Origin: a virus
UHGV virus genome: UHGV-0177730
DNA: 61,495 nucleotides
Strand: one strand, 5' to 3'
Every line of letters begins with the position of its first letter. Positions within the stretch are counted from its first letter, which is position 1. The notes under the pieces are model-generated. The model made no database searches and was not told where the DNA came from. It saw nothing but the letters and a program-made list of their open reading frames with translations. A program made the position numbers and the translations under genes. Below, one piece after another: positions 539 through 61,491 of the stretch.

Positions 539-1954
539 TTAGTAGCCTCCAATCTGGCTAGCAGCACGATATTTACGTTGTGTGTTAAACAAGAACTTCT
601 TCTCTCGCTTATGTACGTACTCCATCATTGCGTACTGCAAGGCGTCATGAATATGAGAGAACTCATTCTTGACAGGAGATGCTTTATAAAGAACACCGTT
701 AACGGTCTTAGATTCAGCATACTTGTACTCGGACACAAAGCCTTTTCTTAAGGCTATACACTGAGGCCCAAGCTTGAACTTACCTTTCAAACGAAGGAAC
801 TGAGCAACGGCTTCAAAACGAGGAGTCCAGTTGTTTGTCTTAGCTAGCTTAACAGGAAGATTACATTCTTTCAGTATCTCCACACCAGACTTAGCATCGT
901 TCATTGACCGCTGTGAAGTAGCAGGGTCACACACAACTTTAAAGTTATTTACAATCCAAGGATACTTAGATGTGATCTTAGGCCAAAGATGTTCTTCACA
1001 GAACTCTTTAAGCGAACAGTTGTCTGTGCAGATCTCGTCAAACACAATAACTGTACCGTCTGGAGCTTGCTGTGTGAAAGCAGCAGAAGGGGTCAATCCT
1101 TGGTCCATTCCTATGACAACAGGCACACCACGAAGAGGAAGGACCTCTTCATCAACATGGTGGTCGAGATCACTGTAATCCTTATAAACAGGTTTACCTC
1201 GCTTTACTTCACCGTAGTTGTTGAGTACGTTGACGTTGATAAAGTCTTCGTCTGCGCCCATACACATGGTTTCGTAGTAATCCTTGTCAAGGTTGTCGAG
1301 GTTCTCTGCTTCAGGATTAGGGACATACTTCCCTTCAACTTTAAGCATAGCCGGAGGTTGACGGTAGAAACTATGTCCTTCTGGTTTGTCTTCCTCTGCA
1401 AGGCGATATAACCAGTGCTCGGTACTTACAGCGTTGTAGTCAAGTATGATGAATGGTCTGACTGGGCCACCGTCTTTCACAGCAGGATAACGCCTAAAGC
1501 GTGTTTTGATAAGCTGGAAAGTACCTTCAGTAAGTTCAGATGCTTCGTTCAAATGAGCAGAGGTCACTTCCAACGAACGAAGCTTTTCAGCAGATCTATC
1601 ATCGTCGACAGCGATAAACACGACTTCCATATCTACAGTCGTGCCATCAGCTAGAGGATACTTAATCCTGCCAACGATGGGGGTAGAATAAGTAATAGTG
1701 ATCTTGTCTTTAAACCATGACAACCACGTTTTAATGGTGGTTGACTTTAGGGCCGGGTACGTTGCGCGGACAACAAGGTGTCTGCTGTGCCTGACTCCAT
1801 GTTCGTCTGGTTTCTGACGCATAGCATTAAAGAACGCTTGAAAGATACAACCAGAGGACTTGCCAGATCCTACTGGCCCCATCACAAACAGAAAAGGATT
1901 AGGGTCACGATGAATCTTTGCAAACGTAGGCAGGACTTGATAGTTAATATCCAT
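539..1954 (-). CDS. terL: Terminase large subunit
   Basis: Walker A GPVGSGKSS near the N-terminus, acidic nuclease-type C-terminal half, 471 aa, immediately upstream of the portal gene. Confidence 0.85.
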   Translation of the reverse strand: MDINYQVLPTFAKIHRDPNPFLFVMGPVGSGKSSGCIFQAFFNAMRQKPDEHGVRHSRHLVVRATYPALKSTTIKTWLSWFKDKITITYSTPIVGRIKYPLADGTTVDMEVVFIAVDDDRSAEKLRSLEVTSAHLNEASELTEGTFQLIKTRFRRYPAVKDGGPVRPFIILDYNAVSTEHWLYRLAEEDKPEGHSFYRQPPAMLKVEGKYVPNPEAENLDNLDKDYYETMCMGADEDFINVNVLNNYGEVKRGKPVYKDYSDLDHHVDEEVLPLRGVPVVIGMDQGLTPSAAFTQQAPDGTVIVFDEICTDNCSLKEFCEEHLWPKITSKYPWIVNNFKVVCDPATSQRSMNDAKSGVEILKECNLPVKLAKTNNWTPRFEAVAQFLRLKGKFKLGPQCIALRKGFVSEYKYAESKTVNGVLYKASPVKNEFSHIHDALQYAMMEYVHKREKKFLFNTQRKYRAASQIGGY

Positions 1955-2313: not shown

Positions 2314-2986
2314 CTAAGTCAGAGTGGTCAAGCAGGGTAGCTATCTTCTCTGCATATGTTTTTAAAAGGAATTGAAAGTCACTAGAAGTAATGTCTTCAC
2401 GAATCTTACAGAACTCTACAGCAAAAAAGCCAAAAACATCTTGGTCGTCAGACACAAGAGGAGTAAGAGCAAAAGACACAACCTTGTGTGACTTCAACAG
2501 TATATATGTAGACATATCAAACTTACGCAAACGTTCAATGTTCAGGATTACTTTAGGCTCTGTACCAAAAGCAGCGTTAGTAAGATATGAGAAAGCAGAT
2601 ACAGGCAAGTTTAAGAAGTCAGCCTGTGCTGGCTTGAGGCCGGGACGAACAACTTCGTGTGTGCAGGACATCTTTGCAAAGTCAATACCTGACAAGTTTT
2701 GACACCCGTTATGAAACTGAACAACTGCAACTCTGTCTGCATTTAATTCAGACTTAGCATGTTTAAGCTTGGTAAGAACACGCCTATTCATATCAATTAG
2801 TGATGGAAAATCCTTTGCAAACTTCTTTGTCTTGTGTTTAGCTACACGTTTTAAAAAAGACGATAAAGTTGCACATTCATAGATAATGAATGCAGTTCCT
2901 CCCAGCATCGCAAGTGATATATAGTCAGCGTCTTTTACTAAGCTTGACAGACCGTTAACGATCCCTAGTAAAATTTGACTATCCAT
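2264..2986 (-). CDS. Hypothetical protein (first gene of the leftward late operon)
   Basis: 240-aa ORF downstream of a minus-strand sigma70-like promoter. Overlaps the next gene by 50 nt. Confidence 0.45.
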   Translation of the reverse strand: MDSQILLGIVNGLSSLVKDADYISLAMLGGTAFIIYECATLSSFLKRVAKHKTKKFAKDFPSLIDMNRRVLTKLKHAKSELNADRVAVVQFHNGCQNLSGIDFAKMSCTHEVVRPGLKPAQADFLNLPVSAFSYLTNAAFGTEPKVILNIERLRKFDMSTYILLKSHKVVSFALTPLVSDDQDVFGFFAVEFCKIREDITSSDFQFLLKTYAEKIATLLDHSDLGDLDEERLYKAPSEEA

Positions 2987-3008
2987 AACTTTTCTTTTGT
3001 TTTACCTC

Positions 3009-3037
3009 TTGACAAAAAGTCAATTAGTGATTATAGT
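3009..3037 (+). promoter_or_regulatory. Sigma70-like promoter: TTGACA (3009-3014), 17-nt spacer, TATAGT (3032-3037), driving 3131..4024
   Basis: Near-consensus -35/-10 with 17-nt spacer. The -10 lies within the 22-bp palindrome tatagtat-ttatgt-atactata (3032-3053). Confidence 0.6.
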
Positions 3038-3064
3038 ATTTATGTATACTATAACCTAAAATAT

Positions 3065-3092
3065 AGTATAATAACTATATGTATTTTGTCAA
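3065..3092 (-). promoter_or_regulatory. Sigma70-like promoter on the minus strand: TTGACA (rc of 3087-3092), 16-nt spacer, TATACT (rc of 3065-3070). Candidate promoter of the late operon
   Basis: The reverse complement reads cTTGACAaaatacatatagttatTATACT. It is divergent from the 3009 promoter. Confidence 0.55.
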
Positions 3093-3130
3093 GGGGTTAT
3101 AGTAAAAAAATGTATAAAAAGTGAAATAAA

Positions 3131-4024
3131 ATGTCGTCGACGCTGATAGAAAAAGACCGTAGGAAATTAAAGTGGCGGAGGAATCCTATACTGAATGAAG
3201 ACACACCTGAACCTTACAAGATCCCTAACTGTAGGTGTCAGGTAGGTTTATCAGAATGTGAAGTAGAAGCACAGTGGGACAAGGGTCTGTACACAAAAGG
3301 TGACCTTGTTAACGACCTGAACATCTTCTTTAACTATCTGCCTGAAAGTGAAGTAAGCAGAATGGTTAACGTTATGATCTGGTGTTTGTCTACCGGTTTA
3401 AAGAACAGAGGTGGTATCGACCTTAAAGACTTTGCAGTCATTACTGTTGAAGAGAAAACGTACAGCAGACCATTAACACAAGTAACACGTGACTGCTTTG
3501 GTGTGACTAAGCGTGTGTCCCGTGCACCTAAGAAGAGGTACTTTGTTTTTAGAGAGTATCCTCAGCTTAAGTCTGTAGTTGTACCACGTACACCTGACTT
3601 CTTTCCTGGGCATGAACGTACATGGTTTACATGGAAAGTGTCTGCAACAAACCATCCGTACTACTATGCAAGACACTGGCGTAGAGGTGCTTTGTATATG
3701 CAACAAGTCTTTGATAAGACCTTTGAATATACAGGGTACACAGACGAGTACATAGAGATGGCACAAATGAACATCATAGAACCTTTTGGTACAGAACGTG
3801 AACATATGAATACAGTTCACCTTGGCTTTGAGACACCACCTTACGTCAAGGCAGCTTACACAGACGAACTGATCAAGGTACCACTTAACTATGTGTCAAG
3901 TAAATACTTTACAAGTAATAAGGTCAAGTATGATCTTATGTTTAGAAAGATAACTAAAGAAGAAGCAAGTAAGCATCTTCTAAGTCAACCAAGAAGACTA
4001 GCTATAGACAAGAAAGAAGACTAA
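3131..4024 (+). CDS. Hypothetical protein (isolated cassette with its own promoter and terminator)
   Basis: 297-aa ORF, AT-rich codon usage, flanked by the promoter at 3009 and the hairpin at 4032-4096. Confidence 0.55.
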   Translation: MSSTLIEKDRRKLKWRRNPILNEDTPEPYKIPNCRCQVGLSECEVEAQWDKGLYTKGDLVNDLNIFFNYLPESEVSRMVNVMIWCLSTGLKNRGGIDLKDFAVITVEEKTYSRPLTQVTRDCFGVTKRVSRAPKKRYFVFREYPQLKSVVVPRTPDFFPGHERTWFTWKVSATNHPYYYARHWRRGALYMQQVFDKTFEYTGYTDEYIEMAQMNIIEPFGTEREHMNTVHLGFETPPYVKAAYTDELIKVPLNYVSSKYFTSNKVKYDLMFRKITKEEASKHLLSQPRRLAIDKKED

Positions 4025-4031
4025 ACGCAAG

Positions 4032-4096
4032 AAGCCCCCGGCTACAACAAGTACTATGCGAAGCATGGTCAGGTGTAGTACGGGGGCTTTTCTTTT
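4032..4096 (+). terminator. Long interrupted hairpin followed by a T-run (terminator and/or RNase III-type site)
   Basis: aagcccccg...(inner stem gtacta/tagtac)...cgggggctt followed by ttttcttttgg. Confidence 0.55.
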
Positions 4097-5152
4097 GGAG
4101 TAGTAGTCAGAATTTGATAGGGGGGCGCTCGGCCCTATTAACTACCAAGCTGTGCTTAACTACTAATATGTCGGAGAGTATCAATTACTTTAATGCACAG
4201 GTTGTTAGATACTATTTTCCCATGTCCTAATCAACTCAAACTACCTAAGTAGTTCGCTCGCTTTGAGGCTCGCTCACAGCCTAAAGAAAGCGTGTTCACA
4301 TGAACAAGCATGTATTGCTCAAGTACCAGTGTTGTACATGTGAACTGAGTTGAAGCATGGATTTAATCATCCAATCAATCACAGCAGCGACCCTGCGAAT
4401 CACTCCGTGATTTCTTATTCTTATGGAATAAGATAATCAGTTTTTTTCAAAAGTCAAGGGGTTTGGGACAACTTTCTTAAAAAAAGTTAAAAAAAGTTCG
4501 TCGAGACTACGTCTCTCCATCGCACCTACGAGACTAACGTCTCTTCGGTGCTCTCCTTTACTAGTAGGTGAGGCCGGGCCGGTAACTAGTGGGTGCCCCT
4601 GACTACTGTTGGTTACATATACTATAAGATGAGATGGATCATGGTGAGTATACCTCCTAGACCTGTTCTGAACATATAGAACTATGAGAAAGATAAACGA
4701 TTATGATGACGTCATTCAGCCTCCAAAAACTTACGTGTGATGTCTGTGTCAACTGTACCCCCGTGCCTCCGCTCTGTCCCACGGGTAGGGTATGCTCCCT
4801 CTCCCCCCTTGTGAAAGAAAGCACAGTGTGACTCCTAAGGTTTCTAGTGTTACTCCTAGTAGTTGTTGGATGGTTATAGATAGTTAAAAAGTACAATGAT
4901 TACAATAGGTTAGGTATGATTAGCACTGACTCATAGCCTAGCTTGTGGGTAGGATTTAAGACCCAGAACCAGCCATCAATGGTAATCATTATCAACAAAC
5001 AGCTGCTAATAGTTACCAATAGCAACTAATCGCATCCAAACGTTTTTAAAAGGTTAATCAAATCAACTACCTATGGTAAGCATGATCTAAAAGTGTAAAT
5101 GGTTTAGCATGGTTACACATAAGTTCAACTTATTGTACTCATGCACTCCAAA

Positions 5153-5271
5153 GGTACAAATGTTTGAACCATGTCCTAAGTACCTGTAGTACTTATGGTA
5201 TTATGCACAGCATGGCTCTATAAGCTCCACAAACATCCGCCGGCGCGCCTACTAGGTACAAATTCTTGAAC
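5153..5271. repeat. Two copies of the 17-mer GGTACAAATnnTTGAAC (5153-5169 and 5255-5271)
   Basis: 15 of 17 identical direct repeats about 100 bp apart in the ORF-free region. Confidence 0.5.
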
Positions 5272-5385
5272 TAATAGGATAACCAATAATCAACTATTTC
5301 AACTACTTACGTTTTGGCACAAGGCTTGCTATGTAAGAGGCAAAACACGCAAGTGCAGGTTCTTTTAAAAGCGTTGAAAAAGTGC

Positions 5386-5414
5386 TTGACAAGGCCATAC
5401 AAGCCATGTAGAGT
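5386..5414 (+). promoter_or_regulatory. Sigma70-like promoter TTGACA-N17-TAGAGT
   Basis: gtgcTTGACAaggccatacaagccatgTAGAGT. The gtgcttgacaag motif recurs at 22020. Confidence 0.5.
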
Positions 5415-5706
5415 CCATTTCAACGATGAACGTGTTCTTTCAAAAGTACATAGCGTCTTTGTCAAGTCCTGTTCTCTGGGAAAACCGGAAGTAGACGGAC
5501 GTTAAACAGCGCTTAGCTGTTCTTTGCTTGCGAGTGCTACGGCACTCTAAAGAGTAGTCGCCAGTCGGAATAACGAGCCACAAAGAGAACGAAAAAAGAC
5601 TTGACAAGCGCAAAAACTTATGAGAGAACACTTTCAACGAAAGAGGGAAAACCTACTCCTATAGAGGGCACAGTGAACAAGCGGAGCTTGACACTGGACT
5701 ACTCAT

Positions 5707-5765
5707 AAGACCCATAGGATTATGGGCAGAGTAAGTACTCTTAAGACCCACGATTGTGGGCAGAG
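5707..5765. repeat. Tandem pair of ~24-bp hairpin-containing repeats AAGACCCA-N-TGGGCAGAG
   Basis: aagacccataggattatgggcagag (5707-5731) and aagacccacgattgtgggcagag (5743-5765). Each has a 5-6 bp stem (cccata/tatggg; cccac/gtggg). Confidence 0.5.
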
Positions 5766-6567
5766 GAATAAGACCATAGCAGTCTGAAAACGTATGCTTG
5801 CGGAGTCGGTTAAAGAACTTGAGAGTCTCTGGAGAGAGACGAGGGGGCATGGAGTTGTCCCGAAAGGCATTAGTTTATAATGTCTTCTCGCACTAGCTGC
5901 ACACAAGCACAAGGCGCAGCTATGGCAATATCCGAAAGGTGAGCTATGCATGGAGCTTGCGAGTTATGCGTTCTCTGCCGTAACACTAACTACAGCAGAC
6001 TTGCACAGTAGTAAAGTGTCTTAGATGCGTTGCTTGTGTAAGTATGTAGTTCAGCAGGTAGAAGCGTACAGAAAAGCCTAGACTTGCCTATATACTCCCT
6101 TATCCTCGGGTGTGACGTATAAACAAGCGGACGGAACAAGCCGACTGGGGGCCTTGTGCACTGTGCAAGGTAGGTCGGGGGAAAGTCCTACTTACAGCAA
6201 GTCTATAATCTGCCGATAAACCGTAAACGGCATTGTGTAGCTTACACCTATACACTGTGATAAGACGGCTCAAAGGGCGGATTGAAGTAGCTTTAGAAAG
6301 GCTACAGTCGTCGAGCATTGGCGTTAAAAGGTCGCGATTCGACTTGCGTTGGAGACAGTGCAACGACTATAAATAGTAGGCAAAGGTGTTCAGTCTGTTA
6401 ATAGTTTAACAGCTACAAGGGATTGGGGTGTTTAGGCGCGTTAATCCCTTGTAGCCAACTAAATTCAACGTGGTGACGACTGGGACTTTATGGCAAAGGC
6501 ACTTGCTACTATTCCTATGGGCAAGCTGAAAAGGCGTATGCTTAGCTGGAAGTAAATAGCTTAATCG

Positions 6568-6593
6568 TTACAGGGGCATCTAAGTCCCTGTAA
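6568..6593 (+). promoter_or_regulatory. Perfect 8-bp stem hairpin (ttacaggg/ccctgtaa, 10-nt loop) about 30 nt upstream of the first early-gene RBS
   Basis: Seen directly. Followed by AGGAGA and a GTG at 6627. Confidence 0.4.
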
Positions 6594-6626
6594 TCATTTA
6601 AGTTATTTAACAATAGGAGAACTATC

Positions 6627-6791
6627 GTGTTAAAGTATCTTTCCCAACGTTATGTCAATATGCTCATGAAAGGCAATCATGCCATAGATTTTTACGTATG
6701 GGCAGGTCACGTTGCTTATAAAACTCAACAACTTAAAACCGCCGTTGAAGAACAGCAAACGCAAGCTGTGGAGAAACACCATGCACGATAA
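6627..6791 (+). CDS. Small hypothetical protein (54 aa, GTG start)
   Basis: AGGAGA lies 6 nt upstream of GTG. Its stop TAA overlaps the ATG of the next ORF (ccATGcacgaTAA), suggesting translational coupling. Confidence 0.3.
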   Translation: MLKYLSQRYVNMLMKGNHAIDFYVWAGHVAYKTQQLKTAVEEQQTQAVEKHHAR

Positions 6792-7311
6792 GCCACAAGG
6801 TTACAAGAGACAGGCTAATGCCCTGAACATTTGCAGGAATCAGGGCATGAATAACCTCTATCAAACGGAAAAGGAAGAACCGCGCATCATTCCAGTGTGG
6901 AACAAGCGCGGGGAGTGTATAGGCTTTAAGAACTCTCTTACAGGTTCCTTCATCAATCCCAACGATTTGCCTGTTGATGAAATAACAGGCTATCGTGTTC
7001 TCCCCGGTCTGGCGGATGTACCTTTCCTGTACGCTGAATACGGACAAAACAAGTCTGTAACTGGCAAGCATGGCAAGCATATCAACATCCGCAAGGTACG
7101 TACAAGCGAGCGCCCACGCGCTAAGTATCGTACTACAAACGTGGGCACTGGTGAGTCTATGGACAAGCAAGACGGGTACGCTTGTGCCCTCGTGACTCTG
7201 GACAAACCGCAAAAGGTTCGGCGTCGTGTTAGCCGTCATGCTAAGGTCGTCGTGCATACAGAAGACGATTACATCATGACCTCAACACGGTCGTCCCGGC
7301 GTTTCCGTTGA
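6781..7311 (+). CDS. Hypothetical basic protein (176 aa from ATG 6781)
   Basis: The ORF track starts at 6712. The ATG at 6781 is coupled to the upstream small ORF. Confidence 0.45.
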   Translation: MHDKPQGYKRQANALNICRNQGMNNLYQTEKEEPRIIPVWNKRGECIGFKNSLTGSFINPNDLPVDEITGYRVLPGLADVPFLYAEYGQNKSVTGKHGKHINIRKVRTSERPRAKYRTTNVGTGESMDKQDGYACALVTLDKPQKVRRRVSRHAKVVVHTEDDYIMTSTRSSRRFR

Positions 7312-7400
7312 TTTATATACAAAAGCCTAGACTATTAGGCTTTTGCAATAAGGCAATGGACTTCCACGACTACAAACCATTAAACATACGAGGTATTACT

Positions 7401-8297
7401 ATGAACGCTGCTATCGCTACTCCTATTGCTCCCGTTACTGCCGAACTCGCTACTGCTCCCGCCAAGATTACGGACTGGACAGAGGCAGACTTCCGCGCTC
7501 AAGTCAACGTCTTTGTGAACTCCCAAAAGGAATTCGTTAATGGCGTCACTCGTTGCACGCTGTACGCTGTTCGTGCTGCCATGATGAACAGCAACAACCA
7601 GCCTTTGAACTACATTCTCGGCAACCTTTCGGAAAAGCTGCGCCCGGCGTGGACTTCTTGGCTGTTCTACTTCGCGCCCTTCGCCTTGTCCGGGGGGAAG
7701 GATGCCAGTACCATCACGCTGGACGATGGGACGATCGTTGACCTTAAGTCTTCCATCAAGCTGGTCGCCAAGCGTTGTGATGAACTGTGCGACGCTGCCG
7801 AGATTGACAAGCTCGCTCGGGACAAGGGCGGGAACATCAACGACCCTGCTGGCATGATGCGCCTGTGCGACTACGTTATTGGCTCCCTTCGCTCGGCTCC
7901 GCGTTTCGACACGTGGAAGAAGGACAAGACCGCTGGCCGTGGTGACAAGCCTTTGACTGAGGAAGAAGTCATGGCGAAGTACACCAGCATCACCAATAAG
8001 CTGAACAAGCTGATTGAGCAGGCGAAGGCGTCCGGCGTGCACGATGTGCGCAAGTTCCCCGGTATCGAAACTCCGCATGGTCTGGATTACTACATCCAGA
8101 TGCTGGAAAACGCGGACGAAAACGACATGAGCGACGACGTTCTTGCTAAGGTACGCCTGCTCAAGGGGGAAAGCCTTCCCTTCATGTCCATGATTAAGCT
8201 GCTGTCGAACTGTGACAGGTCTAACCTGACCCCTGAACAGGAACTGTTCTATGAAGAAGTGTTGAAGAGTGCCGTTGTGCATGGTATCGAACTCTAA
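7401..8297 (+). CDS. Hypothetical protein, markedly GC-rich gene
   Basis: GAGG lies 9 nt upstream of ATG 7401 (the track ORF starts at 7308). Codon usage is much more GC-rich than its neighbours. A strong terminator follows. Confidence 0.55.
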   Translation: MNAAIATPIAPVTAELATAPAKITDWTEADFRAQVNVFVNSQKEFVNGVTRCTLYAVRAAMMNSNNQPLNYILGNLSEKLRPAWTSWLFYFAPFALSGGKDASTITLDDGTIVDLKSSIKLVAKRCDELCDAAEIDKLARDKGGNINDPAGMMRLCDYVIGSLRSAPRFDTWKKDKTAGRGDKPLTEEEVMAKYTSITNKLNKLIEQAKASGVHDVRKFPGIETPHGLDYYIQMLENADENDMSDDVLAKVRLLKGESLPFMSMIKLLSNCDRSNLTPEQELFYEEVLKSAVVHGIEL

Positions 8298-8307
8298 GCA
8301 TTACGTT

Positions 8308-8345
8308 AAAGCTCCGATAGGCGTGTTCTTATCGGAGCTTTTTTG
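8308..8345 (+). terminator. Rho-independent terminator
   Basis: aaagctccgata ... tatcggagc followed by tttttt. Confidence 0.8.
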
Positions 8346-8831
8346 CGTCCTGTATACAACAAGGGAGCTGTAAACATGCCAGACATTAGGCAGTTTCTGT
8401 CTAGGCGTTATCTCCGCCTTGCCGATAACCTGTCAGAGTCCTTTCTGTTGTCACCGTCAGTCTATACGGACTGGAAAACTCAACGACTGATTGAGCTCAT
8501 AGAACAAATCAATACCTGTATTATCTACAGACTTTATTAGCTAAGTATCTAAGAAACAGGCTGAACATCAGCTTGTTTCAAAGGATGCTTATTGCATCCA
8601 GTTAAACCATAACTGTCAAGGCTACATCCTTGAAAGGCAGTGTTGCTGGATGGAAAAGGTTTGTCTCAACGCGGTGACATGCATCCTTTGTCCTCTGTAT
8701 GGCAGAATGTGTGACGGTAAACCTGAACACCCTCTTGACGTACAGGACATTCCTACTACGGAAGAAGAGGATGTACTTTTCGAATTGAGGTTTGAGCGAG
8801 ACTGTTGTTCATTCTAGCATACATTCTTAAA

Positions 8832-23968: not shown

Positions 23969-25933
23969 ATGCCTTACGCGGTACTCGACATAGAATGTTC
24001 TAAAGCACCGAAGCACATGCCTTGGACAGTAGGTTCCTTTTTGTGCTCTGTTGGAATTGAACGTCAGGACGGTACCTCAACTGTGTGGTTCTTCAATCCG
24101 AATGACAGACCACATGAAGAACTTCTTGCTGAAATCCAACAAGAGATTGACAGCGTTGACTTCTTGATTGGACACAACACTAAGTTCGACTTGAACTGGT
24201 TGAAGTGGATTGGTTTGAATGTCAAGGACAAGCCAGTCTGGTGTACGATGGTAGCTGACTATCTCATAAATGGTCAGCGTAAACTTGAGTATAGTTTGAA
24301 TGCTGTTGCCAAACGCTATGGCTTAGGTCATAAGCTCGATGCTATGGCTATGTATTGGCAAGCTGGATATGAGACGGATGAGATTCCGTTAGAGATTCAT
24401 GAAGACTATCTCAAGCAGGACGTACATCTTACACATGACGTGTTCAAGAAACAACTCACGCTCATTGAGCGTGCAAGCCTTGGCAAGATAACGGAACTTT
24501 CTTTCCGTCTAACCCAGATCCTTTCTGACATGGAAGTATCTGGTGCAGCCTTCGACAAAGAAGAAGCTATTGCTTACTGTAACCAAACGCGTGAACAGGT
24601 TAAAGCAATGGACAAGACGCTGGTCGATCTGGCTGGTATTGACTTTACTCCCTCCTCTGCTTCACAACTCAGTGCTGTTTTATTTGGTGGTTCTTGGAAG
24701 AAAGAAGTTCCTGAACTTGTAGCTCGTCAGCTAAAGAGCGGTAAGTTTAAGATCACCACACGTAAGACTAAGATTGAGATTCCTATCAAGGGACTTGGCT
24801 TTAAAGTTCCAGACGGCTGCTTGTCTAAGAAGACTGGCTTGCCTTCAACTGATAAGAACACGCTTGATTTGTTAAAGTCTCGTGACAAACGCTCTGAGTC
24901 CTTTCTTCAAACACTACGAGATCAGAAGAAGCTGATGAAAGTAGTGTCTTCAATTGCTGGTTCTAAAGAAGAGAAAGAGGCAGGATTGATTGCTGTCATC
25001 GGTAAAGACGACAGGCTTCATCCTTCCTTTAACCAGTGCATTACACGTACAGGTAGACTCTCTTCTTCAAATCCTAACGGGCAGAACTTTCCTCGTAATG
25101 GTACCAGCCCCATCAAAACATTCTTTAAAAGCAAACAAGGGGTTATTGTAAACATTGACTTAGCTCAGATTGAATGGCGTATAGCTGCTGAGTTAAGCCG
25201 AGATCCAGTTATGCTTCATGAGTTGAATGAAGGTCTGGATATTCATTCTGATAATGCTTTACGTTTCTTCGGTGCAGACAAGTATCCACGAGATTCAGCA
25301 GAGTTTAAAAGACTTCGTACTACTGCAAAAACAATGTCGTTCCGTCTTTTGTACGGTGGTTCAGCCTCTGGATTCTATAGAGATCAACGGATGCCTGACT
25401 ACAGTTTAAAGAAATGGAAAGAAATTGTTGCAGCTTTCTACCAAAAGTACCAAGGACTTAAGAAGTGGCAAGACACAAACGTGCAACTTGCTAAGTCGCA
25501 AGGGTATCTTCGTAATCCATCTGGACGTGTACTTACGTTTGATAACATGATGGGTTATGATGGTGTAGAAACTGTTGATGAAAAGCAAGTGTCAAACTAC
25601 CCGGTACAATCTGGGTCAACTGACATTATGTATTTGCTTATGTGGAAGTTGCTTACACGTACACAAGAATATAAACTTCTTGCTAAGTTTATTCTTCAAG
25701 TGCATGACTCTATGGTATTTGATTCTCCCATCGAAGAAGCAGAGACGTTATGTCGTGAAGCTCTCAAACTGATACATAGTCTTCCTCAACTTGCTAAAGA
25801 ATACTTTGGTTGGGATATTGTGGTACCCTTGACAGGAGATTGTGAAATAGGGTATGACTATGGTAACATGAAAGCGATCAAGGAAGAAGATATGGATAAG
25901 ATCTTCGCAGATCTTCCTGCCTTCCTCTCTTGA
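23969..25933 (+). CDS. Family A DNA polymerase with 3'-5' exonuclease domain
   Basis: Exo motifs AVLDIEC and YLKQDVHLTHDVF. Pol motifs RTGRLSSSNPNGQNFPR, KTMSFRLLYGG, LQVHDSMVFD. Confidence 0.9.
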   Translation: MPYAVLDIECSKAPKHMPWTVGSFLCSVGIERQDGTSTVWFFNPNDRPHEELLAEIQQEIDSVDFLIGHNTKFDLNWLKWIGLNVKDKPVWCTMVADYLINGQRKLEYSLNAVAKRYGLGHKLDAMAMYWQAGYETDEIPLEIHEDYLKQDVHLTHDVFKKQLTLIERASLGKITELSFRLTQILSDMEVSGAAFDKEEAIAYCNQTREQVKAMDKTLVDLAGIDFTPSSASQLSAVLFGGSWKKEVPELVARQLKSGKFKITTRKTKIEIPIKGLGFKVPDGCLSKKTGLPSTDKNTLDLLKSRDKRSESFLQTLRDQKKLMKVVSSIAGSKEEKEAGLIAVIGKDDRLHPSFNQCITRTGRLSSSNPNGQNFPRNGTSPIKTFFKSKQGVIVNIDLAQIEWRIAAELSRDPVMLHELNEGLDIHSDNALRFFGADKYPRDSAEFKRLRTTAKTMSFRLLYGGSASGFYRDQRMPDYSLKKWKEIVAAFYQKYQGLKKWQDTNVQLAKSQGYLRNPSGRVLTFDNMMGYDGVETVDEKQVSNYPVQSGSTDIMYLLMWKLLTRTQEYKLLAKFILQVHDSMVFDSPIEEAETLCREALKLIHSLPQLAKEYFGWDIVVPLTGDCEIGYDYGNMKAIKEEDMDKIFADLPAFLS

Positions 25934-59940: not shown

Positions 59941-61491
59941 TTAACTCTGAGGATACGCTTGTTCAGGCTGACTAATCAGAGACATATCTTCACGAAGCTG
60001 TCTCAGACTATCAATCAAAGCCGCAGGACTAACACCTTCAGACCGTGCAGTCTCGACCATATCGGTCATCCACTGACGTTCTTCCTGAGCTTGCTTCTGT
60101 GCTTGCTGCTTCTGAACTTCAATCTCCTTGTCAGAGTACACCAAGTTGTCATCAGAAAGATCAAGGGCGTCAGCGATCGAACGAATAATGCTCGGACGTT
60201 TAACAGTACCAAGGTCAACCTGATTGTTAGTGATCTGCGCGAAGTTAATCAGACTCTGTGCTCTGATTTCCTTAGCGATGAGAGATGAAGTACCACGAGC
60301 TTGAACAGCATAGTCACCTTTGATATCAGCATCACTATTGAACTTCATGTTCCAGTGATACATAGCAGAAATAAACGGCTTAGTGATGCCATCATCAAAG
60401 TTCTTGACCTGATCCTTAATCGTAATGTTTGCAGAACCCATCAACATAGACAGACCGGAAGCAGTACGACCGGCAGCACCAGAAGGTTCTCCCCACATCT
60501 GACGAGGAATAGAAGTAACTTCATCCCCATAGCTGCGGAAGAGTTCAATCATCCGTTCAAATTCAGTAGTATAACTGGGAAGCTGGAAGACACGAATAGC
60601 AGGGTTAGCAGCATCAGCTCCTTCACCTGTACGCATCCATACCTTAAACGGATAGACATCACGAGGATCTTCGTCTTCCGACATAAGGTCAAGGTTTACT
60701 TCAATCTGAGGACCAGCAGAGATTGCAGCGTTGTCCAGCATAGCTCTGAACGCACTATTAATCAACTCCTGAACATCAGACATAATAGACGGAATACCTT
60801 CACCAAAGATGGAGGTTTCGTCTTTATCATAATAATAGAAGAAGTAAGGCCACTTAACGCCTTCCATAGGCATGAGAGACGCTTTAATGACGTGGTTACC
60901 AAGTACCCAAATGTTTGCAGCCAGTTCTACCTGACCTTGCATACGTTCAGGAATCTCAACACCAACCTGACTCAGATCATCAGCATCTACAAAACCCCAG
61001 AACTCAAACACTTCGTACTTCTTAGAGTGAGCAGCATCAGCAACACCGCTGTCAATTACATCACCCATAGAGGTAAGCTGGTTTTCAAAGTCCTTCTTCT
61101 GATAATCACCTTCAGGATTCTCAGCAACATAAGTAGAGATTACGTCCCCATTGAAGTCTGATCTCTTTCCGAGACCGATGACATCGTGCTTATCCATCTT
61201 ACGTCGCTGAATGATGTATCTACATTCGGAGGGGCAAGTAGCTTCCATGTCCGGGTAGATATCCCATATGCGGACGTTTTCGATGAAGGGCGTGATGGAG
61301 TCATAATCACAGAGTATCCACTTCTCTTTGTCTCCATTCTTTTCCTTCTTATAGTACTGACGGTTTTCAGAAATAGAAACAAGAGGCCCTTTAAGAATAC
61401 CAGTACCATACAGATTACCAGAATGCATAACATCCCGCATAATCTCACGGTACTTCAACTCAGCAAGCTGGTCTTCAATAACCTTAGACAT
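59941..61491 (-). CDS. Portal protein (C-terminal ~516 aa; probably continuous with 1..533 across the window junction)
   Basis: Positioned between terL and the scaffold gene. Acidic C-terminus with QQAQKQAQEE. In-frame continuity with the ORF at the opposite window edge. Confidence 0.7.
   Translation of the reverse strand: MSKVIEDQLAELKYREIMRDVMHSGNLYGTGILKGPLVSISENRQYYKKEKNGDKEKWILCDYDSITPFIENVRIWDIYPDMEATCPSECRYIIQRRKMDKHDVIGLGKRSDFNGDVISTYVAENPEGDYQKKDFENQLTSMGDVIDSGVADAAHSKKYEVFEFWGFVDADDLSQVGVEIPERMQGQVELAANIWVLGNHVIKASLMPMEGVKWPYFFYYYDKDETSIFGEGIPSIMSDVQELINSAFRAMLDNAAISAGPQIEVNLDLMSEDEDPRDVYPFKVWMRTGEGADAANPAIRVFQLPSYTTEFERMIELFRSYGDEVTSIPRQMWGEPSGAAGRTASGLSMLMGSANITIKDQVKNFDDGITKPFISAMYHWNMKFNSDADIKGDYAVQARGTSSLIAKEIRAQSLINFAQITNNQVDLGTVKRPSIIRSIADALDLSDDNLVYSDKEIEVQKQQAQKQAQEERQWMTDMVETARSEGVSPAALIDSLRQLREDMSLISQPEQAYPQS

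Follow-up and report, generated by a model that had tools for sequence, protein, structure and literature searches.

What does a phage keep in some 2.7 kb of DNA from which genes appear to be missing? The question is posed by UHGV-0177730, a 61.5-kb phage genome whose whole sequence of 61,495 nucleotides is referred to here as the window. A first-pass annotation, made from the letters alone, had drawn attention to a region beginning at position 4025 in which no credible open reading frame (ORF) could be seen, and had offered an early promoter region for the host RNA polymerase, a packaging or terminal-repeat region, and one or more structured noncoding RNAs as candidate explanations. We find that the right half of this gap, at ~5421 to 6465 on the plus strand, is a large structured RNA, with a noncoding, conserved, multidomain fold at ~5440 to 6465. 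The gap as a whole is very probably a noncoding early control region, the main product of which is a new large structured noncoding RNA.

A conserved gap without protein-coding content

The gap extends from 4025 to 6626, bounded on one side by the stop codon (4024) of a gene for a 297-residue protein and on the other by a ribosome-binding site and a GTG start codon at 6616 and 6627. The earlier claim that it lacks a credible ORF is borne out by reading frames, stop counts, codon reassignment, and substitution pattern alike. No ORF of 100 codons or more is present, the longest under the standard code being 87 to 88 residues. Stop codons are spread evenly over the six frames, at 47 to 63 per frame, whereas the coding frame of a real gene contains 1.

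That the gap nevertheless hides protein genes, either through an alternative code or as many tiny ORFs, is extremely improbable. Some gut phages do recode stop codons, and ORFs of 40 to 88 residues can be listed in the gap. However, all three kinds of stop codon break every frame, and reassigning TGA, TAG, or TAA singly gives a longest frame of 144 residues; the coding signal under an alternative code that had been named as grounds for abandoning a noncoding interpretation was thus looked for and not found. The 3-base periodicity of substitutions, a third-position pattern that is strong in both flanking genes (power ratio 9 to 17), is absent across 4000 to 6470 in a comparison of 11 genomes (power ratio below 3), and the small ORFs are neither preceded by ribosome-binding sites nor kept among relatives.

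Around 45 related contigs keep the gap in position and size, and the same gap lies between the same two genes in 12 IMG/VR and 24 metagenome contigs. Sequence identity is ~75 to 83% within it and 85 to 92% in the flanking genes, and two blocks, 4178 to 4566 and 5638 to 6066, are swapped out in many relatives. In relatives recruited through the flanking proteins the gap measures ~2.3 to 2.5 kb, and it persists in contigs as divergent as L059, in which the upstream protein is 60% identical, and L066, in which the downstream protein is 41% identical. A lack of conservation in related genomes had also been put forward as something that would speak against the region; instead, both the gap and the structure of its right half are retained. 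No DNA similarity to the gap was found among 50,697 GenBank phages.

Evidence for the fold and its strand

The evidence for the RNA comes principally from an alignment of 12 sequences and 875 columns (A1, MAFFT-based), to which RNAalifold was applied. The consensus contains 184 base pairs, 85 of them with compensatory double changes. Standard pairs account for 96.5% of the aligned cells, falling to 32 to 38% when the 3′ partners are slid by 1 to 3 columns, and the number of pairs with double changes falls from 86 to between 6 and 19 in the same slid controls; none of 500 column shuffles reached the observed values. Both sides of helices can be seen to change together, as in the stem around a CACAAG loop, which in the alignment of 5340 to 6480 appears as AGCUGC...GCAGCU, GAUUGUA...UACAAUC, or GAUACAG...CUGUAUC. 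Within pairs, G·U occupies 305 cells and A·C 18, which identifies the plus strand as the RNA. The thermodynamics of the window copy point the same way, with a minimum free energy of −208 kcal/mol (z = −4.15) for the plus strand and −162 kcal/mol (z = −1.33) for the minus strand, and a sliding RNAalifold scan favors the plus strand over 5443 to 6470.

A covariance model of one part of the fold (R1, corresponding to domain 3 at 6203 to 6371, with 169 positions and 48 pairs) gave one match per genome, on the plus strand only, in 30 of the 30 loci tested. These include the divergent copies in L059 (55 bits, E ~1e-11) and L066 (33 bits, E ~1e-6), and single-sequence folds of both reproduce the same helices. 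In the resulting 30-sequence alignment 98.9% of cells are paired and 37 of the 48 pairs are compensatory, compared with 6 to 10 in slid controls; such a model-fitted alignment leans toward its model, a bias from which the A1 counts are free.

A scan for additional covarying stacks revealed a pseudoknot, in which the loop of the first hairpin of domain 1 (5873 to 5877) pairs with 6120 to 6124 downstream. The pairing is GUUUA/UAAAC in the window only, GCUUA/UAAGC in most relatives, and GCUAU/AUAGC in the clade of L021, so that all cells are paired and three of the five pairs are compensatory; slid controls give 22 to 40%. In L066 a counterpart, CUACUAC/GUAGUAG, can be read from the fold at matching places. 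A palindromic kissing loop had been considered for the AGCU loop of this first hairpin and was replaced by the covarying intramolecular pseudoknot.

Among the earlier suggestions, that of structured noncoding RNA is therefore strongly supported, by covariation with controls, and turns out to describe the main content of the region. The kind of element was foreseen and its location was missed, in that the interval from ~5421 or 5636 to 6465 had been left almost without comment.

Promoters and anatomy of the RNA

The right half of the gap is made up of the following elements.

5376 to 5414, plus strand: promoter P1, an A-tract followed by cTTGACA (5385 to 5391), a 17-nucleotide spacer, and TAGAGT (5409 to 5414)
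5440 to 5607, plus strand: structured module between P1 and P2
5591 to 5629, plus strand: putative promoter P2, an A-tract followed by cTTGACAAG (5600 to 5608) and a weak −10 element, GAGAAC; a direct repeat of P1
5637 to 5863, plus strand: variable 5′ extension, absent in relatives of the L002/L009 type
5864 to 6067, plus strand: domain 1, helices 3 to 10 of A1, most of them compensatory between three sequence types
6068 to 6205, plus strand: domain 2, helices 11 to 18 of A1
6203 to 6371, plus strand: domain 3, the most conserved part
6400 to 6465, plus strand: 3′ terminal stem-loop with a perfect 13-bp stem, 6412 to 6424 with 6443 to 6455 (helices 27 and 28 of A1)

P1 matches the σ70 consensus at 10 of 12 positions in a strict scan and is near-invariant across the 12 aligned relatives. 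It points toward the early operon and occupies the same place in every relative, highly divergent ones included; its counterparts in L059 (3237 to 3265, TTGACA-17-TATAGT, 11 of 12 positions) and L066 (146 to 174, TTGACA-17-TAGAGT) also pass the strict scan, which thus returns one promoter per clade (5386 to 5414 in the window). Transcription from P1 would begin at ~5421. P2 is highly conserved and fails the strict scan; if active, it would start transcripts at ~5636. It is one of the 1 to 3 further copies of an A-tract followed by CTTGACAAG that every genome carries, all with weak −10 hexamers. The −35 region of P2 doubles as the 3′ arm of an RNA helix with 5457 to 5467, and this explains the antisense CTTGACA noted at 5461 (5460 to 5466, minus strand), which was rejected as a promoter because it is the 5′ arm of that helix. 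A third promoter at 5688 was likewise rejected, since its CTTGACA (5687) is shared with no more than two relatives and falls within one of the helices of the variable extension.

The three σ70 candidates of the first-pass annotation thus had different fates: the one at 5386 to 5414 (TTGACA-N17-TAGAGT) is confirmed and conserved, the one at 5601 has a perfect −35 element and a poor −10, and the one at 5688 is not conserved. The outline of an early region served by the host RNA polymerase is supported by the conserved P1 facing the early operon. The description of the region as dense in promoters did not hold, since a consensus scan counts 9 sites compared with 7.8 ± 2.7 in shuffled sequence. 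The repeated CTTGACA motif is present at 5385, 5600, 5687, and 5460 to 5466 (minus strand) as described, and with 4 of the 43 copies in the window the gap holds no special excess of it.

The genome-wide abundance of CTTGACA is an observation in its own right. Its 43 sites on both strands compare with 14.4 ± 3.6 expected, a number reached in none of 100 shuffles; examples are at 3008, 3093 (minus strand), 22023, 25929, 35316, and 36524, and many are intragenic and have no −10 element. The 9-bp palindrome CTTGACAAG makes up eight of the 43. The excess cannot be explained by real promoters, and the motif may be a binding site for a protein or a word under selection. Also downstream of promoter-like units are strings resembling GUUCUUU(U/C)AAAAG (5356 to 5370, 5441 to 5455, and 5513 to 5525), which bear a loose resemblance (10 of 13 positions) to the boxA of rrn operons and phage lambda; L059 does not conserve them, and they are probably not meaningful. 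A boxA-like reading of GUUCUUUCAAAAG after P1 was dropped for the same reason, the motif not being kept in L059.

The module between the two promoters has an outer helix (5457 to 5467 with 5597 to 5607), a hairpin with a UACG loop (5530 to 5545) that is also found in L059, and a terminator-like hairpin (5505 to 5521) followed by CTTTGCTT. In the sliding RNAalifold scan, 19 of the 38 pairs predicted for 5443 to 5588 on the plus strand are compensatory, and the hairpins vary by changes of this kind (AACAGC/GCUGUU, CAUGCC/GGUAUG, and AAAGGC/GCCUUU). The hairpin at 5505 to 5521 would either end an RNA of ~105 nucleotides from P1, leaving P2 for the large RNA, or form part of an RNA of 1 kb. The large RNA would be ~830 nucleotides long here if counted from P2 and ~1,045 from P1; the shortest natural versions, which represent its core, are ~615 to 635 nucleotides.

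The variable extension includes the nonconserved CTTGACA at 5687. At 5700 to 5770, in this genome and two relatives only, it carries two tandem hairpin units of ~36 nucleotides, GACCCAUAGGAUUAUGGGC and GACCCACGAUUGUGGGC, that differ by compensatory changes. The unit length recalls the repeats of type III (ToxI-like) antitoxins, and there is no Rfam match.

Domain 1 consists of the first hairpin, a three-way junction that includes the CACAAG-loop hairpin, a hairpin with a GNRA (GAAA) loop, and a long irregular stem, an architecture that recurs in the single-sequence folds of L059 and L066. A closing helix, ACAGA (6068 to 6072) with UCUGU (6394 to 6398), encloses domains 2 and 3. Many invariant, unpaired, purine-rich strings are found in the 3′ two-thirds of the RNA, and several survive in L059 and L066. 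Unpaired stretches that do not vary are ACAGAAAA, CUAUAUACUC, and GGACGGAAC in domain 2 and CGAUAAAC, GAUAAG, CUCAAAGG, GUUAAAAGG, UUGGAGACA, and CUAUAAAUA in domain 3. Nucleotides held constant without pairing, in a scaffold that covaries, suggest tertiary interactions, a surface for binding, or an active site. To the terminal stem the relatives add an outer stem of ~10 bp, and no U-tract follows.

Junction with the early genes

Between the RNA and the early coding region lie the following features.

6466 to 6614, plus strand: insertion private to this genome, absent in 11 of 11 aligned relatives
6616 to 6620, plus strand: ribosome-binding site AGGAG
6627 to 6791, plus strand: 54-codon ORF, present in a subset of relatives
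6781 to 7311, plus strand: gene for a 176-residue basic protein (pI 9.9), found after the RNA in every relative examined, down to 41% identity

In the relatives, the terminal stem of the RNA ends ~27 nucleotides ahead of the ribosome-binding site of the first early gene, with no terminator between, and in L066 an extra ORF lies between the RNA and that gene. The insertion in the window comprises a 21-codon ORF, MAKALATIPMGKLKRRMLSWK, at 6490 to 6555 with no obvious ribosome-binding site, followed at 6567 to 6594 by a terminator-like hairpin and T-rich tail. If this hairpin is functional, the large RNA would be a discrete transcript in this phage only. Coding periodicity resumes at the early coding region. 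The 176-residue protein has a conserved KVRTSERPRAKYRT and a C-terminal TRSSRRFR, has no match in Pfam or PHROG, and is probably largely disordered; an AlphaFold model has a mean confidence score (pLDDT) of 45, too poor for use. It is a candidate partner of the RNA, and the association serves only as a lead to a possible RNP.

Comparison with known RNA classes

Bacterial and phage RNAs of more than 500 nucleotides with complex conserved folds amount, to our knowledge, to a handful: the rRNAs, RNase P RNA, group I and II introns, OLE, GOLLD, ROOL, and HEARO. Each of those known to us has proved to be a ribozyme, the core of a ribonucleoprotein (RNP), or a self-assembling particle. A scan with the Rfam models, which had been proposed as a check on the region, was run with release 15 and found no catalogued family there, nor any at gathering score anywhere in the window. 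Permissive searches, with E-values up to 10 in 3900 to 6800 and up to 1 in the divergent copies of L059 and L066, gave only one or two junk matches to microRNA or small RNA families. These negatives cover GOLLD, ROOL, OLE, HEARO, group I and II introns, RNase P RNA, transfer-messenger RNA (tmRNA), 6S RNA, and riboswitches. Pattern scans of 185,579 GTDB species genomes with two motif combinations gave no match, which argues, at that stringency, that this is not a host or prophage element; further pattern scans of IMG/VR returned the same clade only, and literature searches found no prior description.

It is very improbable that the RNA is a divergent member of GOLLD, ROOL, or an ORF-less group I or II intron, or a divergent RNase P RNA or tmRNA. 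Such an origin would suit a phage-encoded RNA of more than 600 nucleotides with an ornate fold and a string like GGAAAGUCC that is reminiscent of RNase P. The Rfam results nevertheless weigh against it in the window, L059, and L066 alike, and in the covariation model the GGAAAGUCC string pairs locally, unlike the P4 helix of RNase P. ARAGORN found neither tRNA nor tmRNA genes in the 61.5-kb window. There is also no exon context, nothing coding or RNA-coding being interrupted. A group I intron was rejected for want of a core match and because the flanks are noncoding or an intact gene start; a group II intron, because there is no Rfam match, the fold is not the six-domain wheel, and there is no internal ORF.

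The closest likeness is to GOLLD and ROOL, which are also phage-encoded, at least 600 nucleotides long, and multidomain with pseudoknots, and show strong covariation and no known associated protein. GOLLD occurs in phages and prophages, often beside tRNA genes, and the function of both RNAs is still obscure, in part because their context in prophage tRNA islands is uninformative. The RNA described here differs in having no similarity detectable by Rfam models, in not lying beside tRNAs, of which the genome has none, and in its fixed place behind an early promoter, where it leads the early operon in a lytic podophage. It represents a new family, comparable in kind to GOLLD and ROOL and unrelated to them by Rfam models, and it joins the very small number of large structured RNAs that phages are known to encode. 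In GOLLD the 3′ part is well conserved and the 5′ part variable (PMC12286853), a feature shared by the present RNA and counting for such kinship; GOLLD assembles into a homo-oligomeric nanocage (PMC12286853).

The position of the RNA invites comparison with three further phage systems. There is a likeness to T7 in the host σ70 promoter or promoters, the long untranslated leader, the stem before the first gene, and the T7-like replication genes downstream. In T7, the early operon opens with strong host σ70 promoters in tandem (A1, A2, and A3), the leader counted from A1 is ~430 nucleotides, and R0.3 is an RNase III site before gene 0.3; the T7 leader is not known to us to fold into a conserved multidomain RNA. 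The leader here differs in being 0.6 to 1.0 kb long and structurally constrained, in having only one TTGACA unit with a good −10 element, and in belonging to a genome in which no gene for a phage RNA polymerase was found. In phage HK022 the put RNAs, of ~70 nucleotides and two stem-loops, are encoded directly after early promoters and target the polymerase that transcribes them. They resemble the present RNA in being structured and transcribed first, from a place just behind an early promoter; the present RNA is ten times as large, with nothing to connect it to antitermination. The pRNA of phi29, 120 to 174 nucleotides long, comes from an early promoter near the packaging genes of protein-primed phi29-like phages and works through three-dimensional structure and oligomerization. 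The likeness is that of a phage noncoding RNA from an early promoter working through its three-dimensional structure; no similarity to pRNA was found, and this phage has a conventional large terminase.

Proposed role and alternatives

The sequence suggests the following course of events. Host RNA polymerase would start at P1, and perhaps at the weaker P2, once the DNA enters the cell, and the RNA would be the first phage product. Since no terminator separates it from the first early gene in the relatives, it would form the 5′ leader of the early-operon transcript. Cleavage at the long terminal stem (~10 + 13 bp), a plausible RNase III site by analogy with the early RNA of T7, may then free it. 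The invariant single-stranded nucleotides in a covarying scaffold argue for an RNA that acts through its shape, as a binding scaffold, self-assembling particle, or ribozyme, and not as a mere stabilizer of mRNA. Our guess would be an early host-takeover or anti-defense RNA or RNP, serving as scaffold or decoy, possibly together with the adjacent basic protein; we favor this because of the early timing and the constant basic-protein neighbor downstream. Self-assembly like that of GOLLD and ROOL, or activity as a ribozyme, may be alternative modes. More fully stated, this would be an undescribed class of ornate RNA of 0.6 to 1.0 kb, confined to a lineage of lytic gut podophages, made first and acting by its three-dimensional fold (as ribozyme, particle, or RNP) on the host or its defenses. 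We advance this tentatively, as a serious possibility. If true, this would for the first time give a large structured RNA of phages a fixed position in the infection program that can be interpreted.

Several considerations weigh against this interpretation, or against the firmness of its parts. The transcription start, 3′ end, processing, and abundance of the RNA are all inferred. The conserved hairpin at 5505 to 5521, with its U-rich tail, could terminate P1 transcripts, and the −10 element of P2 is poor. That no terminator comes after the RNA is as compatible with a leader acting in cis as with an RNA that is released. The RNA is linked to no partner, whether of host or phage, and the model of the basic protein (pLDDT 45) was too poor for use. 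Most of the aligned sequences belong to one clade, with 65 to 95% identity, and many of the compensatory changes are inherited rather than independent events. Finally, a prior description outside Rfam 15 and the literature searched is possible.

The main rival, which we consider unlikely, is that the RNA does no more than act in cis as the 5′ leader of the early operon, controlling its expression as a giant attenuator, riboswitch, or antitermination element or as a determinant of translation or stability, and does nothing in trans. Such a leader would account for the position on the same strand as the first early gene, ~27 nucleotides from its ribosome-binding site and with no intervening terminator in relatives, for the alternative pairings that domain 2 can form (CUUGCYUAUA with UAUAARCAAG or with GCAAGUC), and for the parallel with the HK022 put RNAs, which likewise lie just after early promoters. 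The cis-regulators of bacteria and phages known to us are, however, several times smaller and simpler than an RNA of 0.6 to 1.0 kb, and neither the three domains, the pseudoknot, nor the many invariant unpaired nucleotides would be expected of one. Moreover, the RNA is intact in the window despite the 150-nucleotide insertion that puts a terminator-like hairpin before the coding region, and in L066 the extra ORF intervenes. Considerably less probable again is that the region acts only as DNA, comprising promoters, operators, an origin, or packaging or terminal repeats, with the apparent folds being protein-bound palindromes. The left half (4100 to 5380) is conserved with little covariation, CTTGACAAG is a 9-bp palindrome repeated in the region, GTTAC, TAGGTA, and CTATGG are enriched in some relatives, and contig ends cluster at ~4550 to 4820, all of which would suit a DNA element. 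But the pairing in 5440 to 6465 tolerates G·U (305) and not A·C (18), which is sensible only for a plus-strand RNA, and its helices join distant segments, nesting across hundreds of nucleotides, in addition to the pseudoknot. No iteron family was found in the window, and clusters of contig ends arise at mosaic junctions too (~8460 to 8590).

There is also little likelihood, and slightly less than for an element of DNA alone, that the transcript acts in replication as a primer or an origin RNA, in the manner of ColE1 RNA II or of transcription-primed initiation at the T7 primary origin, with its structure kept for R-loop formation. A T7-like primase-helicase, family A polymerase, endonuclease I, and ligase are present, and the T7 primary origin lies behind promoters. 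Against this, no AT-rich unwinding element follows the RNA (GC 0.45 to 0.48), no antisense regulator is evident, and conservation resembling that of tertiary structure goes far beyond known primer RNAs. The RNA has a context much sharper than that of GOLLD and ROOL: it lies behind a conserved early promoter and before the first early gene, with a constant basic-protein neighbor, in an abundant clade of gut phages. Its timing, processing, partners, and phenotype are thereby open to direct test. Probing and cryo-EM can start from the alignment, whose natural compensatory variation extends to very divergent members. More generally, long empty stretches in metagenomic phage genomes merit a look at the level of RNA.

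The left half of the gap

To the left of 5380, where the sliding RNAalifold scan detects little covariation, the gap contains the following.

4034 to 4096: long GC-clamped hairpin, GCCCCCG...CGGGGGC, then TTTTCTTTT; read from the sequence and kept in the main clade
4430 to 4457, minus strand: leftward σ70-type promoter, TTGACT-16-TATCTT here and TTGACA-17-TATACT in most relatives
4503 to 4515 and 4530 to 4543: mini-hairpins GAGAC-TAC-GTCTC and GAGAC-TAAC-GTCTC
4572 to 4582: conserved GC palindrome GGCCGGGCCGG
4745 to 4812: conserved C-rich block, TGTCCCACGGGTAGGG...CCCTCTCCCCCC, 82 to 92% identical in relatives and recognizable in L059
5152 to 5169 and 5254 to 5271, plus strand: two copies of AGGTACAAAnnnTTGAAC, conserved as far as L059
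5238 to 5250: GC palindrome

The hairpin at 4034 to 4096, which a simple terminator scan does not list because of its long loop, looks like a terminator for the 297-residue protein gene and, in the opposite orientation, for leftward transcription starting at the 4457 promoter. That promoter is kept in all clades, including L021/L022 and L059 (2299 to 2270), and the ~400 nucleotides downstream of it (4430 to 4100) are unrelated sequence in many relatives, with no credible ORF. The second copy of AGGTACAAAnnnTTGAAC is followed ~25 nucleotides on by TTTCAAC, a spacing equal to that at the 5386 promoter; whether the two copies are promoters is uncertain, their −10 regions being poor.

Several features singled out in the first-pass annotation belong to this half. 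The mini-hairpins are present where they had been placed, and they are neither conserved nor part of the structured RNA; the block at 4503 to 4543 is missing or different in all relatives and is thus specific to the window. Promoter hairpins of the N4 type have a stem of 5 to 7 bp and a loop of 3 nucleotides, and the mini-hairpins fit this shape, but as promoters for an N4-like virion RNA polymerase they were rejected, because they are absent from all relatives and the 2326-residue protein of this phage matches only LPD38. The poly-C tracts at 4757 to 4810 also exist and lie outside the RNA, in the C-rich block, which shows little covariation on either strand. The GC palindrome at 5238 to 5250 is likewise real and outside the structured RNA. 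The AT-rich stretch at 4860 to 5110, suggested as origin-like, is mild (GC 0.37 compared with ~0.44), and 2851 to 3150 is more extreme (GC 0.30). The short repeats amount to two-copy families of direct repeats of 12 to 20 nucleotides, and a search for iterons and recurrent k-mers in 4100 to 5380 found only weak 6- and 7-mers.

In some relatives the left half is packed with short motifs. GTTAC, TAGGTAAC, CTATGG, and TAAGAC recur in L021 (~7600 to 8000), L022, and L059 (1890 to 2270), including 18-nucleotide units like ATGTTACTnnTAGGTAAC, and are enriched 5- to 10-fold over the rest of the locus; mere traces of them, and of the likewise enriched TAGGTA, are seen in the window.

Eight contig ends from independent assemblies (L001, L005, L013, L035, L037, L040, L044, and L048) fall at ~4547 to 4819, not at a single base, and two of these contigs, L013 and L048, begin with GATTATGATGCAG twice, 27 nucleotides apart. 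The window itself has no terminal overlap. Within this interval, the segment 4699 to 4722, GATTATGATGACGTCATTCAGC, which includes the perfect palindrome TGACGTCA and for which relatives carry TGATGCAGTCA, coincides exactly with the break point of several contigs. The ends could be physical genome ends or a terminal repeat; a second cluster at ~8460 to 8590 (L004, L007, L021, L056, and L058) makes assembly breaks at mosaic junctions an equally good explanation.

The phage and its relatives

The phage is a lytic podophage of the human gut, of ~62 kb. Landmarks outside the gap are as follows.

539 to 1954, minus strand: large terminase
23969 to 25933, plus strand: family A DNA polymerase
59941 to 61491, minus strand: portal or adaptor protein
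Minus strand: 2326-residue protein, for which an LPD38 domain is the sole match

The plus strand encodes a T7-like replication set of primase/helicase, family A DNA polymerase, endonuclease I, ATP-dependent ligase, and ThyX. The relatives are contigs of ~61 to 63 kb from human-gut metagenomes; precomputed Pfam hits name the structural genes of close ones as SU10_portal, SU10_adaptor, and Phage_capsid_4. By their large terminase, the nearest cultured phages are at most 38% identical. No phage RNA polymerase was found among the proteins of the window, and consensus σ70 promoters stand at boundaries of gene clusters (3009 to 3037, plus strand; 3092 to 3065, minus strand; 22023; 35316; and 36524), so that the phage appears to use the host polymerase. 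The first two form a divergent pair, each matching 11 of 12 consensus positions, and lie in the most AT-rich stretch near the gap (2850 to 3130, GC 0.30); the pair would drive the 297-residue protein gene and the terminase operon. In one close relative, L063, the large terminase (6395 to 8803) has 802 codons in place of 471 and shows a faint LAGLIDADG match, which suggests an intein or the insertion of a homing endonuclease.

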